NCBI RefSeq assembly: GCF_050920415.1 | Contig: NZ_CP169309.1 | Length of the DNA: 64,000 nt | Origin: Escherichia coli | GTDB taxonomy: Bacteria; Pseudomonadota; Gammaproteobacteria; Enterobacterales; Enterobacteriaceae | Strand: one strand, 5' to 3' | In this document: positions 4,279 to 25,860 of the stretch, in pieces | How positions within the stretch are numbered: position 1 is the first letter of the stretch | How the letters are laid out: each line of letters starts with the position of its first letter | Made by a program: the position numbers and the translations under genes | Notes under the pieces: model-generated | Databases searched by the model: none | Told to the model about the DNA's origin: nothing | Seen by the model: only the letters and a program-made list of their open reading frames with translations

Positions 4279-5370
4279 ATGCGTTTTCTGCGCCGACCAA
4301 TATCGCTGCGCCAACGGCTGATATTGACCATTGGGGCCATTTTGTTGGTGTTTGAGTTGATCAGCGTCTTCTGGCTATGGCATGAAAGTACCGAGCAGAT
4401 TCAGCTGTTTGAGCAGGCGCTACGCGACAATCGTAACAACGATCGCCACATCATGCGTGAGATCCGCGAGGCGGTCGCCAGCCTGATTGTCCCTGGCGTC
4501 TTTATGGTCAGCCTGACGCTATTTATCTGCTATCAGGCGGTACGCCGCATCACCCGCCCGCTGGCGGAGCTGCAAAAAGAGCTGGAAGCGCGCACCGCCG
4601 ACAACTTAACGCCCATTGCCATTCACAGCGCCACCCTCGAAATCGAAGCGGTGGTTTCAGCGTTAAACGATCTGGTCAGTCGCCTGACCAACACGCTGGA
4701 TAACGAAAGGTTGTTTACCGCTGACGTCGCGCACGAACTGCGAACGCCACTGGCGGGGGTGCGTTTGCATCTGGAACTGCTGGCGAAAACGCATCACATT
4801 GATGTAGCACCGTTAGTGGCACGACTTGATCAGATGATGGAGAGTGTCTCCCAGCTACTGCAACTGGCGCGTGCCGGACAGTCATTTTCTTCCGGTAATT
4901 ATCAACATGTAAAACTGCTGGAAGATGTCATTCTCCCCTCGTATGACGAACTCAGTACCATGCTCGACCAGCGCCAGCAAACCCTGCTATTGCCAGAGAG
5001 CGCCGCCGACATCATCGTTCAGGGTGATGCAACCCTGCTGCGGATGTTATTGCGAAACCTGGTAGAAAATGCCCATCGTTACAGCCCGCAAGGCAGCAAC
5101 ATTATGATTAAGCTGCAAGACGATGGCGGAGCGGTCATGGCCGTTGAAGATGAAGGACCGGGTATTGATGAGAGTAAATGCGGGGAGTTGAGTAAAGCGT
5201 TTGTACGAATGGACAGCCGTTATGGCGGGATTGGTCTGGGGTTAAGTATTGTCAGCCGCATTACACAGTTGCATCACGGGCAGTTTTTCCTGCAAAACCG
5301 GCAAGAGACTTCCGGCACGCGGGCCTGGGTACGGCTGAAGAAAGATCAGTACGTGGCAAACCAGATATAA
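4279..5370 (+). CDS. basS: Sensor histidine kinase BasS (PmrB)
   Basis: 363 aa from the first ATG (track ORF begins at an upstream TTG); H-box ADVAHELRTPLAG and ATPase motifs; follows basR. Confidence 0.9.
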   Translation: MRFLRRPISLRQRLILTIGAILLVFELISVFWLWHESTEQIQLFEQALRDNRNNDRHIMREIREAVASLIVPGVFMVSLTLFICYQAVRRITRPLAELQKELEARTADNLTPIAIHSATLEIEAVVSALNDLVSRLTNTLDNERLFTADVAHELRTPLAGVRLHLELLAKTHHIDVAPLVARLDQMMESVSQLLQLARAGQSFSSGNYQHVKLLEDVILPSYDELSTMLDQRQQTLLLPESAADIIVQGDATLLRMLLRNLVENAHRYSPQGSNIMIKLQDDGGAVMAVEDEGPGIDESKCGELSKAFVRMDSRYGGIGLGLSIVSRITQLHHGQFFLQNRQETSGTRAWVRLKKDQYVANQI

Positions 5371-5435
5371 AGAAAGCTGCTGACCACCAGCACGCTGAAC
5401 ACGGTAGTTAAACTTTCATAAACACGGTTTTTCAT
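5346..5435 (-). CDS. pmrR: Small membrane protein PmrR (29 aa), convergent with and overlapping the 3' end of basS
   Basis: Minus-strand ORF atgaaaaaccgtgtttatgaaagtttaactaccgtg...tggtttgccacgtactga translates to MKNRVYESLTTVFSVLVVSSFLYIWFATY; below the 60-aa cutoff of the ORF track; its 3' end overlaps the last codons of basS. Confidence 0.75.
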   Translation of the reverse strand: MKNRVYESLTTVFSVLVVSSFLYIWFATY

Positions 5436-5439
5436 TGCA

Positions 5440-5465
5440 CTCTCCTCCGTTAACCTGGAGGAGAG
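5440..5465. terminator. Hairpin between basS/pmrR and proP (possible terminator for the eptA-basRS transcript)
   Basis: Inverted repeat ctctcctcc-N8-ggaggagag; no strong T-tract follows, so the function is uncertain. Confidence 0.3.
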
Positions 5466-5479
5466 TATGCGTGTCAGAG

Positions 5480-5496
5480 ATTAAGTGAACCTTAAG
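5480..5496 (-). promoter_or_regulatory. Candidate BasR (PmrA) box for pmrR
   Basis: Minus-strand reading CTTAAG-GTTCA-CTTAAT, about 45-60 nt upstream of the pmrR start codon. Confidence 0.5.
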
Positions 5497-5548
5497 AGTC
5501 AATTGTTGGCCTGATGAGACAGCATCCCATCAGGCAATTCGTTTCAGC

Positions 5549-7051
5549 TTACTCATCAATTCGCGGATGCTGCTGCACCAGGCGGGTACGTTTCTCCTGC
5601 AAATCGGCAATCTCGTGGTCAATATCATCGATTTTTTGCTCGATATTATCGTAATGCTCGACGAGAATTTCCTTCGCTTCCTGTATATCTGACGCCGCCG
5701 GTGTCGCACCTTTCAACGGACGATTCGCCGTCTCTTTCATGGTTACGCCGGTGATTAAACCAACCACCGCCACTACCATCAGGTAATAGGCAGGCATCAT
5801 CAGATTCTGCGAGCTTTCGACCAGCCAGGCCGCCAACGTTGGCGTCAGACCGGCAACCAGCACCGAAATATTAAATGCCGCCGCCAGCGCGCTGTAACGG
5901 ATATGCGTCGGGAACATCGCTGGCAAGGTAGAAGCCATAACGCCCGTAAAGCAGTTAAGGATCACCGCCAGCATCAGTAACCCGGCAAAAATCAGGCCGA
6001 TGACGTTACTGTTAATCAGAATAAACGCCGGGATCGCCAACACAAACAGTGCAACACTACCAAGTAGCACAAACGGACGACGGCCAAAACGGTCACTCAG
6101 CAAGCCCATCACCGGCTGGACAAACAGCATACCGATCATAATGGCGATAATAATCAGCACCCCGTGGTCTTCGGAGTAATGCAGGTTATGCGACAAATAA
6201 CTCGGCATATAGGTCAGCAACATGTAGTAAGTCACGTTGGTGGCAATTACCAGACCAATACATGTCAACAGGCTGCGCCAGTATTTAGTGGCAATCTCTT
6301 TAAACGAGACTTTCGGGCCATCCTGCAAACCTTCGCGGTCGCCCTGTTCCAGTTTATCAACATGCTGCTGGAACGCCGGAGTTTCTTCCAGCGCATGGCG
6401 CAGGTAAAGCCCGATAATCCCTAACGGCAGAGCAATAAAGAACGGAATACGCCAGCCCCAGTCGAGGAAGTTCGCTTCGCCGACAATGGTCGAAATTAAC
6501 ACCACCACGCCCGCACCCAGCACAAACCCGGCAATAGAACCGAAGTCCAGCCAGCTGCCCATAAAGCCACGTTTACGGTCAGGGGAGTATTCCGCAACAA
6601 ATATCGACGCCCCGGTATATTCACCGCCGACCGAGAAACCTTGTGCCATCTTACAGATCAACAGCAGAATCGGTGCCCAAATACCAATCGTGTCGTAGGA
6701 CGGTATTAAGCCAATACAGAACGTACTGATCGACATAATCACAATAGTGATAGCGAGGATCTTCTGGCGACCATATTTATCGCCCAACATACCAAAGAAG
6801 AGTCCGCCAAGCGGTCGAATCAGAAAGGGAACGGAGAAAGTGGCAAGTGCAGCAACCATCTGCACGCTGGGGTCAGCCCCCGGGAAAAAAACTTTACCTA
6901 ATGCGTAAGCAACAAAACCATAAACACCAAAATCGAACCATTCCATTGCATTACCCAGTGATGCTGCGGTAATGGCTTTACGCAGTTTACCGTCATCAAT
7001 AATAGTGACATCACGAAGGGTAATCGGTTTTACTTTTTTCCTTTTCAGCAT
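5549..7051 (-). CDS. proP: Proline/glycine betaine:H+ symporter ProP (MFS osmosensor)
   Basis: Track ORF 5549..7084; start placed at MLKRKKVKPITLRD (500 aa); C-terminal coiled-coil tail (DIQEAKEILVEHYDNIEQKIDDIDHEIADLQEKRTRL) typical of ProP. Confidence 0.92.
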   Translation of the reverse strand: MLKRKKVKPITLRDVTIIDDGKLRKAITAASLGNAMEWFDFGVYGFVAYALGKVFFPGADPSVQMVAALATFSVPFLIRPLGGLFFGMLGDKYGRQKILAITIVIMSISTFCIGLIPSYDTIGIWAPILLLICKMAQGFSVGGEYTGASIFVAEYSPDRKRGFMGSWLDFGSIAGFVLGAGVVVLISTIVGEANFLDWGWRIPFFIALPLGIIGLYLRHALEETPAFQQHVDKLEQGDREGLQDGPKVSFKEIATKYWRSLLTCIGLVIATNVTYYMLLTYMPSYLSHNLHYSEDHGVLIIIAIMIGMLFVQPVMGLLSDRFGRRPFVLLGSVALFVLAIPAFILINSNVIGLIFAGLLMLAVILNCFTGVMASTLPAMFPTHIRYSALAAAFNISVLVAGLTPTLAAWLVESSQNLMMPAYYLMVVAVVGLITGVTMKETANRPLKGATPAASDIQEAKEILVEHYDNIEQKIDDIDHEIADLQEKRTRLVQQHPRIDE

Positions 7052-21691: not shown

Positions 21692-22112
21692 GCTTCGCCC
21701 GGCTACGCAGTACGACACCGACGCAGTTTACGCGCTGATTTGTGAGCTAAAACAGGCGGAGTTTGACCACCACGCGTTTCGCGTGGGCTTTAACGCCAAT
21801 CTGCGCGACCCGAACATGCGCTACCATCTGGCGCTGCTGGATGGCGAAGTTGTCGGCATGATCGGCCTGCATTTGCAGTTTCATCTGCATCATGTCAACT
21901 GGATCGGCGAAATTCAGGAACTGGTGGTGATGCCGCAGGCGCGCGGTCTGAACGTCGGCAGTAAATTACTGGCATGGGCCGAAGAAGAAGCCCGCCAGGC
22001 CGGGGCCGAAATGACCGAGCTTTCCACCAACGTCAAGCGCCACGACGCGCACCGTTTCTATCTGCGCGAAGGCTACGAGCAGAGCCACTTCCGCTTCACC
22101 AAGGCGCTGTAA
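21678..22112 (+). CDS. phnO: Aminoalkylphosphonate N-acetyltransferase PhnO (GNAT)
   Basis: 144 aa; GNAT-like acetyl-CoA region; overlaps phnN by 14 nt. Confidence 0.88.
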
Positions 22113-22113
22113 C

Positions 22114-22872
22114 ATGAGCCTGACCCTCACACTTACTGGCACTGGCGGCGCACAGGGTGTTCCCGCATGGGGCTGTGAGTGCGCGGCCTGCGCCAGAGCG
22201 CGGCGCTCACCGCAGTATCGCCGCCAGCCATGCAGCGGCGTCGTGAAGTTTAACGACGCGATCACCCTGATCGACGCCGGGCTGCACGATCTCGCCGATC
22301 GCTGGTCGCCCGGATCGTTCCAGCAGTTTTTGCTGACGCACTACCATATGGATCACGTGCAGGGGCTGTTTCCGCTGCGCTGGGGCGTGGGCGATTCGAT
22401 CCCGGTCTACGGCCCGCCGGATGAACAGGGCTGCGACGATCTGTTTAAACATCCGGGCCTGCTTGATTTCAGCCACACGGTGGAGCCATTTGTGGTGTTT
22501 GATTTGCAGGGATTGCAGGTGACGCCGCTACCGCTTAACCATTCGAAACTCACTTTCGGCTATTTACTGGAAACGGCGCACAATCGGGTGGCGTGGCTGT
22601 CTGACACCGCGGGCCTGCCAGAAAACACGCTGAAATTTTTACTCAATAATCATCCGCAGGTGATGGTGATTGATTGCAGCCATCCGCCGCGCGAGGATGT
22701 GCCGCGTAATCACTGCGATTTAAACACCGTGCTGGCGCTGAATGAGATTATCCGTTCACCGCGCGTGATTCTGACGCACATCAGCCACCAGTTTGATGCG
22801 TGGCTGATGGAAAATACGCTGCCATCGGGGGTTGAGGCGGGGTTTGATGGGATGGAGATTGGGGTGGAGTGA
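22114..22872 (+). CDS. phnP: Phosphoribosyl cyclic phosphodiesterase PhnP (metallo-beta-lactamase fold)
   Basis: 252 aa; HxHxDH motif ([11 protein letters not shown]). Confidence 0.9.
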
Positions 22873-22906
22873 TGGGTGAGGGGCGATGCCTGCTCTAGAC
22901 TCAACA

Positions 22907-23236
22907 TCACCGCCCATACTCATCTTCCATTCTCCGCTCTTCATCTTCTAGCTGCCGACGCTCCTGATCCAGCTGGCGCTGGCGATCGTCCAGCTGCTTG
23001 CGGCGATCTTCAAACTGGCGGCGGCGATCGTCATATTGTCTGCGCCGATCGTCGTTCACTTCACGCTGCCAGCCGTCGTCGCGCGAATCTTCATAGTCTC
23101 GCCCACGGTCAGGGTTATAAGCATCGTTAATCGCCTGCTGAATATTGCCAATGGTGTCGTCGATAATATCGGCCTGGGCCGGAACGGTGGACAGCGTGAG
23201 CAGGGTGAATAAAATAAATAGCGGAAAACGTTTCAT
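22907..23236 (-). CDS. yjdP: Small secreted protein YjdP with a highly charged D/E/R/Q repeat region
   Basis: 109 aa; signal peptide MKRFPLFILFTLLTLSTVPAQA followed by DDRRRQYDDRRRQFEDRRKQLDDRQRQLDQERRQLEDEERR. Confidence 0.75.
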   Translation of the reverse strand: MKRFPLFILFTLLTLSTVPAQADIIDDTIGNIQQAINDAYNPDRGRDYEDSRDDGWQREVNDDRRRQYDDRRRQFEDRRKQLDDRQRQLDQERRQLEDEERRMEDEYGR

Positions 23237-23304
23237 TAGCCAACCTCAAAAAGAAACTCTATCCACATTAGTCATTACTCATCCATGCAAGTAGTGGATG
23301 AATC

Positions 23305-23622
23305 TCAATTTTTCCGCTGCTCTATTGCCGTAATCGCCTCCACGCGTTGTTGATGACGACCGCCTTCGTACTGCGCGCCCAGCCACGCATCCACAATCAT
23401 TTTTGCCAGTTCGAGGCCAACCACTCGTGAACCAAAAGCCAGTGCAACTTCACTGGCGTAATGCGGATAATCAGTGCGCTCTGACGACCTGGTTTCTTTA
23501 TCAATCCCCTCACTCATTGACTATGAATAAAAGGCTGGCACAGCAACGCAGAATCCTGCGGTGCCAGCGACATGACCGCCCATTGCTCCGGTACGTTTTT
23601 TAATAAGAAACACCGGTTGCAT
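23305..23622 (-). pseudogene. rpiB: Remnant of ribose-5-phosphate isomerase B (internally deleted, 5' region degenerate)
   Basis: 70-aa ORF MSEGIDKETRSSERTDYPHYASEVALAFGSRVVGLELAKMIVDAWLGAQYEGGRHQQRVEAITAIEQRKN matches the RpiB N-proximal segment (WSSERTDYPHYASQVALA) and C-terminus as recalled, but lacks the central part with the catalytic Cys; an in-frame stop lies 2 codons upstream. Confidence 0.55.
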
Positions 23623-23874
23623 TGATTAATTGTGCTCAGTATTTGCCGAAGTACAATATATATAATAAATATATAAAACACCTCATATTATTTACAGAGA
23701 TAATGAATTCGCGTACTTTTCCCTCTTCAGCACAAATGCCTAATAAAATGGCTCGTTCCGCTCACACTTCCACTTATTAAAGTCGCAAATTCCCAATTAT
23801 GATAACGCCAGCTTTAAATGACGTATTTTGCATGGATTACATATTTACGACATAAATGATAAATGGAGATTTAT

Positions 23875-25860
23875 ATGAATAACTCTCGGTTATTCCGTTT
23901 GAGCAGGATTGTTATTGCGTTAACTGCCGCCAGCGGCATGATGGTAAATACCGCTCACGCAACAGATGAAGCGAAAGCCGCGACTCAATATACCCAGCAG
24001 GTTAATCAGCATTACGCAAAATCATTACCGTTTAGCGATCGTCAGGACTTTGACGATGCCCAGCGCGGATTTATCGCCCCGCTGCTGGATGAAGGTATTC
24101 TGCGCGATGCGAATGGCAAAGTTTACTACCGCGCGGATGATTACAAATTTGATATTAATGCCGCTGCGCCGGAAACCGTAAACCCCAGCCTGTGGCGTCA
24201 GTCGCAGATCAACGGCATTTCTGGCCTGTTCAAAGTCACCGATAAAATGTATCAGGTACGCGGCCAGGATATCTCTAACATTACATTCGTTGAGGGCGAG
24301 AAAGGCATTATTGTTATCGACCCACTGGTAACGCCGCCTGCCGCAAAAGCCGCACTTGACCTTTACTTCCAGCATCGTCCGCAAAAACCGATTGTTGCTG
24401 TGATTTACACCCACAGCCACGCCGACCATTATGGCGGTGTGAAAGGCATTATCTCTGAAGCGGATGTTAAATCTGGCAAAGTGCAAGTGATCGCTCCGGC
24501 AGGCTTTATGGACGAAGCCATCAGCGAAAACGTGCTGGCGGGTAACATCATGAGCCGCCGTGCGCTCTACTCTTACGGTCTGTTACTGCCGCATAACGCG
24601 CAAGGCAACGTGGGCAACGGCCTGGGCGTGACGCTGGCAACGGGCGACCCGAGCATTATTGCGCCAACCAAAACGATTGTCAGAACTGGCGAGAAGATGA
24701 TTATCGACGGCCTGGAATTTGACTTCCTGATGACTCCGGGTAGCGAAGCGCCAGCCGAAATGCACTTCTATATTCCGGCCCTGAAAGCCCTGTGTACCGC
24801 CGAAAACGCCACGCATACCCTGCACAACTTCTACACCCTGCGCGGCGCGAAAACCCGCGATACCAGCAAGTGGACAGAGTATCTGAACGAAACGCTGGAT
24901 ATGTGGGGTAACGACGCGGAAGTACTGTTTATGCCACACACCTGGCCGGTCTGGGGCAATAAGCATATCAATGATTATATTGGTAAATATCGCGATACTA
25001 TCAAATACATTCACGACCAGACCCTGCACCTGGCGAACCAGGGTTACACCATGAATGAAATTGGCGACATGATTAAGCTGCCACCTGCGCTTGCCAATAA
25101 CTGGGCCAGCCGCGGCTATTACGGTTCTGTCAGCCACAACGCCCGCGCGGTGTATAACTTCTATCTTGGCTATTACGACGGTAACCCGGCTAACCTGCAT
25201 CCGTATGGTCAGGTGGAGATGGGTAAACGTTACGTGCAAGCTCTGGGCGGTTCTGCCCGCGTTATTAACCTGGCGAAAGAAGCGAACAAGCAAGGTGATT
25301 ATCGCTGGTCGGCAGAACTGCTGAAACAGGTGATTGCCGCCAACCCGGGTGACCAGGTCGCGAAGAATCTGCAAGCGAATAACTTTGAACAGCTGGGCTA
25401 TCAGGCCGAGTCCGCCACCTGGCGCGGTTTCTACCTGACCGGCGCAAAAGAGCTGCGCGAAGGGGTGCATAAGTTCAGCCACGGCACCACCGGTTCTCCG
25501 GACACCATTCGCGGGATGTCGGTCGAAATGCTGTTCGACTTTATGGCCGTTCGCCTCGATAGCGCGAAAGCCGCAGGTAAGAATATCAGCCTGAACTTCA
25601 ATATGAGCAACGGCGATAACCTCAACCTGACGCTGAACGATAGCGTGCTTAACTACCGTAAAACGCTGCAACCTGAAGCCAACGCCTCTTTCTACATCAG
25701 CCGTGAAGATCTTCACGCCGTGCTGACCGGACAAGCCAAAATGGCGGATCTGGTAAAAGCGAAGAAAGCCAAAATTATTGGCAATGGCGCGAAACTGGAA
25801 GAAATTATTGCCTGTCTGGATAATTTCGATTTGTGGGTGAATATCGTAACCCCAAATTAA
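23875..25860 (+). CDS. yjcS: Putative alkyl/aryl sulfatase (metallo-beta-lactamase fold, SdsA1-like)
   Basis: 661 aa from [29 protein letters not shown] (signal peptide); HSHADH motif ([11 protein letters not shown]); RBS-supported second ATG chosen. Confidence 0.88.

Follow-up and report, generated by a model that had tools for sequence, protein, structure and literature searches.

Here we describe yjdP, a minus-strand gene within a 64,000-nucleotide stretch of Escherichia coli DNA (contig NZ_CP169309.1 of assembly GCF_050920415.1; hereafter the window), which may be best explained as a stand-alone gene, driven from an Rcs-type box, for an exported helical rod protein that dimerises in antiparallel fashion; we put this joint reading at a little under an even chance. 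If it is right, envelope stress would switch on the gene for this small periplasmic protein (about 10 kDa when mature) from a promoter in which an RcsB-type box replaces the -35 region. A conserved acidic helix at the N-terminus of the mature protein would probably act as a partner-binding or assembly surface, and a variable, acidic and disordered linker would join it to the rod, a continuous helix held by intrahelical salt bridges between Asp or Glu and Arg at i/i+3 and i/i+4. Two such rods would then pair through a one-residue-wide stripe of Leu, Tyr, Phe or Met and through complementary charges, the dimeric rod placing two conserved N-terminal modules at opposite ends.

The open reading frame (ORF) starts with ATG, ends with a stop codon at 22907-22909 and encodes 109 amino acids (aa), of which the signal peptide is MKRFPLFILFTLLTLSTVPAQA and the mature part DIIDDTIGNIQQAINDAYNPDRGRDYEDSRDDGWQREVNDDRRRQYDDRRRQFEDRRKQLDDRQRQLDQERRQLEDEERRMEDEYGR. 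An initial annotation of the window, made by a model from the letters alone, had named the product YjdP, and this name stands: the locus is 100% identical in E. coli strain MFDS1022581, where the same ORF carries the RefSeq name "yjdP: DDRRRQL repeat protein YjdP", and the protein scores 145.5 bits against the NCBIfam equivalog NF041443 (DDRRRQL_YjdP; E 5e-43, profile positions 1-101 of 101, cutoff 90). A precomputed match to Pfam PF28054 'YjdP' is given for all 120 homologues listed, including ones 96-97% identical to the query, while a Pfam-A scan with a model set that lacks PF28054 returned nothing above cutoff, its sub-threshold matches being to unrelated helical families. Automatic JGI names attached to some homologues ('Skp family chaperone', 'colicin uptake protein', 'RNase H-like nuclease') were rejected as artefacts of charged-helix similarity. 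The window protein is thus a member of the NF041443/PF28054 family; it is 96-97% identical to the K-12-type protein, with which it shares length, signal peptide, N-terminal motif and six heptads, and from which it differs only as an allele (I8, N61 and K79 in the window against L, S and R in K-12). Public resources already list the gene and its repeat as a named family without described function, structure or regulation, in line with the earlier remark that no function had been assigned, and a literature search found no paper about the YjdP protein itself. To call such a domain unusual, as that annotation did, is fair, but the repeat already figures in the names of the curated NCBIfam and Pfam families.

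Selection was estimated by the Nei-Gojobori method from nine inter-genus pairs, in which synonymous sites are near saturation. The ratio of non-synonymous to synonymous substitution rates (dN/dS) is ~0.09 for the mature region in the minus-strand yjdP frame, and YjdP is, as judged from these alignments, a protein under sequence-specific constraint in that frame. An antisense ORF of 84 aa, rich in Ala, Gly and Arg, overlaps the repeat region; it arises from the codon composition of the repeat as a by-product, since the frame under selection is that of the minus strand. An Rfam scan of 22000-24200 gave no match at E up to 1.

Since the upstream neighbour of yjdP differs in every genus, whereas the downstream side invariably consists of yjdM or the end of the phn operon, yjdP should be transcribed from a promoter of its own. 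Another expression dataset supports this, as reads from yjdP there are 5-10 times as numerous as those from rpiB and shift the opposite way. When the upstream regions are aligned, only one strongly conserved block stands out, aTTTGAGAtTCCTCCGCTAC, in which TGRGA-N4-TCY starts 70-74 nt before the ATG in 46/46 loci, and this footprint is discrete, with 1.3-2.0 bits per column against ~0 in the flanks. In most RcsB-activated genes the published homodimer box, TN(G/A)GAN4TC(T/C)NA, stands upstream of the transcription start site or the ATG (PMC7913699); the yjdP element (TGAGATTCATCCAC in the window), a candidate site, likewise stands upstream of the start codon, has the same half-sites and spacing, and fits 7/8 specified positions of the consensus. 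Its TGA (23305..23307) doubles as the stop codon of rpiB or of the rpiB remnant, but the box is kept in genera with an unrelated upstream gene and rpiB coding therefore does not explain it; O157:H7, too, keeps the box (TGAGAATCCTCCTC) despite island-replaced upstream DNA. The specific 13-mer of the box occurs once in the window against 0.07 expected. When the alignment is anchored on the box, further columns are conserved at +37, +38 and +42, and a -10-like hexamer 37 nt downstream of the box start would place the box centre at about -42. A sigma-70 promoter scan found no canonical promoter on the yjdP strand, which is consistent with an activator-dependent promoter without a -35 element.

Published data show that the gene responds to lipoprotein-trafficking stress, an envelope stress of a kind that activates Rcs. 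A LolCDE inhibitor raised yjdP 9.5- and 10.6-fold, and also raised osmB, bdm, wca genes, rcsA, ivy, mliC, spy, osmY and otsBA (PMC5105897); within one experiment of that study the fold inductions were 31 for spy, 12.6 for cpxP and 9.5 for yjdP (PMC5105897). Transcripts are thus detected, where the initial annotation had named lack of expression as grounds for refutation. yjdP was not among the genes in the supplements of the colicin M and early-antibiotic transcriptome papers. A gene list from Nac/CsiR induction gives yjdP a 'genic' chromatin immunoprecipitation (ChIP) peak and ~3.5-fold repression, with csiD likewise listed (PMC5217608), and this may indicate a stationary-phase or carbon-starvation input. 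Given the footprint and the response to the LolCDE inhibitor, yjdP most likely belongs to the Rcs envelope-stress response, with a putative dependence on RcsB.

YjdP is predicted to be exported by Sec and cleaved by signal peptidase I to give a periplasmic protein, and the clear signal peptide noted in the initial annotation is confirmed by sequence rules. Its layout is MKR, a 17-residue uncharged core and AQA before D, with small residues at -3/-1; A22 and D23 are invariant in an Escherichia/Citrobacter alignment, and the -3/-1 rule and this conservation together point to cleavage between them. The dN/dS of the signal peptide is 0.39, relaxed as is typical of signal peptides. YjdP has no lipobox, and no mature orthologue contains Cys. 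In the window and in K-12 the hydrophobic core is encoded by an imperfect short repeat, the stable counterpart of an expanded microsatellite, (TTCACGCTG)n, in other E. coli; this perfect 9-bp repeat occurs with n = 3, 5, 6 or 9, encodes (FTL)n and yields signal peptides of 25-43 residues (22 in the window) with an uncharged run of up to 38, the mature proteins being identical. Such alleles were present in 6/60 and 4/40 sampled complete E. coli genomes, a frequency of ~10%. The longest hydrophobic regions might block cleavage and create a membrane anchor.

All family members share the signal peptide, a conserved helix, a variable acidic linker and the heptads. The N-terminal helix is the most conserved segment of the family (invariant columns; dN/dS 0.07) and carries the family-wide motif AD-IIDDAIGNIQQAINDAY-P; in the sequence it is acidic and amphipathic, with hydrophobic residues at a spacing of 3-4 (I25, I29, I32, I36 and A39), and AlphaFold2 (AF2) models it at residues 20-40 with a moderate predicted local distance difference test score (pLDDT 57-69). 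The linker that follows varies from 14 to 50 residues across orthologues, with a mean net charge of -2.7 and a pN/pS of 0.38. AF2 gives it no regular structure at 41-52, with low pLDDT, and it is probably disordered.

The rod itself consists of six in-register heptads, DDRRRQY DDRRRQF EDRRKQL DDRQRQL DQERRQL EDEERRM, followed by EDEYGR. The string of DDRRRQ-type repeats reported in the initial annotation is therefore real, but the statement that the mature protein consists almost entirely of them was too strong: heptads and tail account for 48/87 mature residues, D, E, R and Q together for 65%, and the first 39 mature residues are the separate conserved helix and acidic linker. Against composition-matched shuffles, like-charge pairs at i+7 numbered 24 with 9.7 expected (z 5.9), opposite-charge pairs at i+4 19 with 10.9 expected (z 3.3), and like-charge pairs at i+4 only 2 with 10.3 expected (z -3.35). 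The charge pattern is non-random and follows the i/i+4 salt-bridge scheme of ER/K single alpha-helices (SAHs).

Exactly six heptads are present in 43/46 orthologues, and across at least ~20 genera individual units keep an identity of their own: unit 1 invariably ends in Y, unit 4 reads D[DE]RQRQL and unit 6 E[DE][DE]ERR[LM]. In 45 orthologues, a hydrophobic residue (L/Y/F/M/I) closes each heptad at position 7 (270/270 units); Arg takes up position 5 in 92% and Gln position 6 in 73%, Arg, Gln or Glu predominate at positions 3 and 4, and Asp is the main acid at positions 1-2 (60-63%). This retention of heptad identity, with a dN/dS of 0.08 for the rod, argues for sequence-specific contacts and against a spacer constrained in composition only. 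Arg outnumbers Lys by 865 to 18 in the 45 orthologues, and this bias, with the high Asp content, may stem from the chemistry of a ligand (binding of phosphate or carboxylate) or from avoidance of proteases. A conserved charge dipole also runs along the rod, with a mean net charge per unit of +0.5, +0.9, +1.1, 0, 0 and -1.5, and the C-terminal tail, at -2.8, completes this plus-to-minus gradient. Such dipoles repel each other in a homodimer that is parallel and in register, and complement each other when the two chains run antiparallel.

In an AF2 monomer model built on a 28-sequence alignment, the rod is one continuous helix over residues 53-108 (56 residues, or ~8.4 nm at 1.5 Å per residue) with a pLDDT of 86-96. 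The helix prediction proposed as a check in the initial annotation thus came out as a long, high-confidence helix over the repeat region, and not as disorder lacking helix propensity. For a fused tandem construct, the AF2 model superposed on antiparallel two-helix hairpins over 107-117 residues (LapD2 7uh4, IpaB 5wkq, p85 iSH2 2y3a, PspA 4whe and prefoldin 1fxk, at 6-13% identity). A PDB sequence search with the family profile found nothing significant, the best match being M protein at E 0.04. A putative antiparallel arrangement, in which two rods would pair, is favoured by the charge gradient and by the tandem model and is the best-supported reading of the structure.

It has to be weighed against a monomeric ER/K-like SAH that would hold the N-terminal module and the C-terminus apart as a rigid spacer, which we consider unlikely. 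ER/K SAH domains are found in eukaryotic proteins such as myosin VI/X and caldesmon and lack a hydrophobic seam. YjdP resembles them as a long charged helix with dense i/i+3 and i/i+4 acid-base pairs, which stands straight and isolated in the monomer model, and a classical coiled coil would need more than its single hydrophobic residue per heptad; nor did the tandem construct improve the pLDDT. It departs from them in being bacterial, periplasmic and conserved in sequence and length, unlike composition-driven spacers, in being based on Arg and Asp with Lys nearly absent, where ER/K motifs are rich in Glu, Lys and Arg, and in bearing an invariant hydrophobic stripe every seven residues. A spacer would, moreover, have nothing to space, with no anchor or domain after the rod, and would leave the conserved charge dipole unexplained. 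Measured against leucine-zipper and antiparallel two-helix coiled coils, on the other hand, YjdP has the strict heptads (a 21-bp/7-aa register, reflected in the i+7 statistic) and Leu at one core position, but its second core position is Arg, Gln or Glu in place of the hydrophobic residue expected at both a and d, sequence kinship is absent, and pairing appears only in the fused construct, at moderate confidence. The rod is predicted to be a charged helix, and a monomeric SAH spacer is probably not its form; of the SAH resemblance seen in the initial annotation, the dense i/i+4 pairs and the predicted helix survive, while the hydrophobic seam and the composition speak against it. The spacer or ruler function suggested there gains no support, as a ruler would need anchors and YjdP has neither a lipobox nor any other anchor at either end, and its conservation is sequence-specific.

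Several observations weigh against the joint reading of an Rcs-driven, antiparallel rod. On the regulatory side, the final A of the (degenerate) RcsB consensus is C in the yjdP box of every species; the generic pattern TNRGAN4TCY shows no enrichment, with 8 matches in the window where 17.5 are expected, and the Rcs argument therefore rests on the phylogenetic footprint and not on a motif count; and the bdm-osmC intergenic region, used as a positive control, was weakly informative, with 7/8 boxes there and osmC's own site off the strict consensus. Regulons of Rcs, Cpx and RpoS are all represented in the response to the LolCDE inhibitor (PMC5105897), and our search of the literature and its supplements found no rcsB-mutant or RcsB-binding data for yjdP. 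On the structural side, a fused construct biases AF2 towards an antiparallel hairpin, pLDDT over the rod is 74-90 in the tandem model against 86-96 in the monomer, with the N-terminal helices down to ~40, and Foldseek gave no match. A coiled coil with one hydrophobic residue per heptad and Arg or Gln at the second core position would be weak. Finally, we found no operon context, partner or phenotype that points to a biochemical role.

About as improbable as the SAH spacer is the proposal that the rod docks onto another protein or polymer, either as a chaperone or modulator of the Spy/CpxP type or by binding to charged polymers of the envelope or to cationic peptides; it is compatible with dimerisation and thus partly complementary to the antiparallel rod. 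Co-induction with spy, cpxP, ivy and mliC would fit it, as would a mature net charge of -5 to -12 across orthologues which, with near-exclusive Arg, suits phosphates, carboxylates and cationic ligands; the N-terminal helix, unpacked in both AF2 models, is also what would be expected of a partner-binding element. Like Spy, CpxP and ZraP of the LTXXQ family, YjdP is small, charged, predicted to be exported and all-helical in its models. It lacks the LTXXQ motif, however, and is modelled as a rod, not a cradle; searches for that family gave no YjdP match in Pfam at E up to 10 and none among PDB sequences with the family profile, no other family was matched above cutoff in Pfam or among PDB sequences, and there is no conserved neighbour gene.

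More doubtful again is a disordered polyampholyte, in the manner of a hydrophilin or late embryogenesis abundant (LEA)-like protectant or of an ion and water buffer, in which the helix would exist in the prediction only. The extreme hydrophilicity and low complexity of the protein, a linker that is itself predicted to be disordered, induction alongside the osmotic and desiccation genes osmB, osmY, otsBA and wca, and the tendency of AF2 to over-predict helices in charged repeats would all be accommodated, but position-specific conservation, a fixed number of units and an invariant stripe are not expected of a protectant selected for composition only, and the charge pattern is specifically helix-stabilising. 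That yjdP is non-functional, either a chance ORF over a DNA tandem repeat or an element working at the level of DNA or RNA, is scarcely credible and in effect refuted by the selection analysis, since the detectable 21-bp array and the overlapping antisense ORF stand against a dN/dS of ~0.08 with saturated synonymous sites, so that the DNA repeat itself is not conserved, and against a transcribed gene that is core in E. coli, kept over at least ~20 genera and without an Rfam match.

Table 1. Features of the yjdP locus, in coordinates of the window
Feature	Coordinates	Strand	Basis or remarks
yjdP coding sequence	22907..23236	minus	ORF list, RefSeq annotation, NF041443, purifying selection
Predicted signal peptide, residues 1-22 (MKRFPLFILFTLLTLSTVPAQA; cleavage after AQA, before D)	23171..23236	minus	n-, h- and c-region layout in the sequence
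Imperfect 9-bp repeat in the signal-peptide core (TTCACCCTG CTCACGCTG TCCACC)	23186..23209	minus	Comparison with EcPF18, uk_P46212, G749 and GCU-H1
Acidic amphipathic N-terminal helix of the mature protein, residues 23-42 (DIIDDTIGNIQQAINDAYNP)	23111..23170	minus	Conservation, AF2
Acidic variable linker, residues 43-61	23054..23110	minus	AF2, orthologue lengths
Six-heptad rod, residues 62-103	22928..23053	minus	Register, Tandem Repeats Finder (TRF), AF2, orthologue alignment
21-bp DNA array	22973..23053		TRF: 3.9 copies, 73% matches, score 76
Acidic C-terminal tail, residues 104-109 (EDEYGR)	22910..22927	minus	Mean net charge in the family
Antisense ORF, 84 aa	22876..23130	plus	By-product of repeat codon composition
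RcsB-box-like element (TGAGATTCATCCAC)	23294..23307	minus	Starts 71 nt upstream of the ATG
-10-like hexamer TAATGT (family consensus TAnnnT)	23265..23270	minus	37 nt downstream of the box start
Shine-Dalgarno GAGG	23244..23247	minus	8-11 nt upstream of the ATG; GAG conserved in the upstream alignment
rpiB pseudogene remnant	23305..23622	minus	Abuts yjcS; als operon deleted
yjdP-phnP gap, 34 nt	22873..22906		REP-type element of K-12 absent

The family is narrow in its distribution. An exhaustive HMMER search across 1.84 billion cluster representatives turned up no more than 55 related clusters, of which many were fragments, with named members in Escherichia, Shigella, Citrobacter, Klebsiella, Buttiauxella, Cronobacter and Entomohabitans. 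Scanning species-representative genomes yielded at least 45 yjdP loci and added Enterobacter, Kosakonia, Leclercia, Raoultella, Kluyvera, Pluralibacter, Pseudocitrobacter, Atlantibacter, Cedecea, Phytobacter, Trabulsiella and Lelliottia, so that among the matches listed the family is confined to Enterobacteriaceae, in at least ~20 genera. Within E. coli, yjdP is a core gene (5404/5426 complete genomes, 99.6%). Heptad number does vary between alleles, proteins of 95, 102, 109 and 123 aa having 4, 5, 6 and 8 units (8 units in E. albertii). A common copy-number polymorphism in E. coli was considered and rejected: the commonest 5-unit allele accounts for 16/5405 records at ≥99% identity, and none of 60 evenly sampled E. 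coli genomes carried a heptad indel.

In the MFDS1022581 annotation the gene is flanked by phnP, which is convergent, and on the other side by an rpiB pseudogene remnant and yjcS. The deletion of the allose (als) operon that the initial annotation placed beside yjdP is evident in this order, the rpiB remnant being followed directly by yjcS, and the same junction occurs in 1571/5426 complete E. coli genomes. In K-12 a repetitive extragenic palindromic (REP)-type element lies between yjdP and phnP in a 146-nt gap; it is absent from the window, which accounts for length differences of +112 bp. In O157:H7 (strain 8368) the OI-167 island, which encodes a hybrid histidine kinase, replaces the upstream DNA and ends just upstream of yjdP. 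The O157:H7 promoter region and the N-terminus of its signal peptide (MKRHSTLFLF) are of another lineage and resemble E. albertii and Shigella boydii alleles, which suggests that recombination reached into the 5' end of yjdP. Citrobacter farmeri has a ParE/PhD-type toxin-antitoxin pair between yjdP and phnP (5327..5862 of its locus). The yjdP-phn junction seems to be a recurrent hotspot of insertion and deletion, given the REP element of K-12 and the toxin-antitoxin module, with OI-167 and the als deletion on the other side of the gene.

Braun's lipoprotein, Lpp, is a periplasmic coiled-coil ruler, and YjdP is comparable as a small, putatively periplasmic heptad-repeat helix of conserved length. 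YjdP nevertheless lacks the lipobox Cys and the peptidoglycan-linking C-terminal Lys (it ends ...YGR) and has no evident anchors; a lipoprotein or Lpp-like anchored ruler was accordingly rejected. A more specific and rather improbable extension of the antiparallel rod is that YjdP forms an Rcs-induced bivalent tether, a rigid dimer of ~8 nm, paired through the Leu stripe and the charge dipole, that carries two identical conserved N-terminal helices on flexible acidic linkers, one at each end, and so bridges or spaces two copies of an envelope partner under stress. If true, the dimer would serve as an inducible, soluble ruler or cross-linker whose coiled coil has a single hydrophobic residue in each heptad and Arg as its only basic complement, and it would explain why six heptads are kept in nearly all species; as a corollary, the (TTCACGCTG)n alleles of ~10% of E. 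coli could turn a cleavable signal into an inner-membrane anchor at one end.

What the present analysis adds to the catalogued family is small (the Rcs footprint, the constraint to six heptads and the microsatellite in the signal peptide) and does not amount to a new kind of system. The rod offers a natural fixed-length helix of Arg/Asp salt bridges with a single-residue leucine stripe, lying between an SAH and a coiled coil, and could inform helix design. If the Rcs footprint is real, yjdP joins the small periplasmic proteins that are deployed when agents such as cationic peptides, beta-lactams or Lol inhibitors damage the outer membrane or peptidoglycan, and the gene would gain a defined condition of expression.

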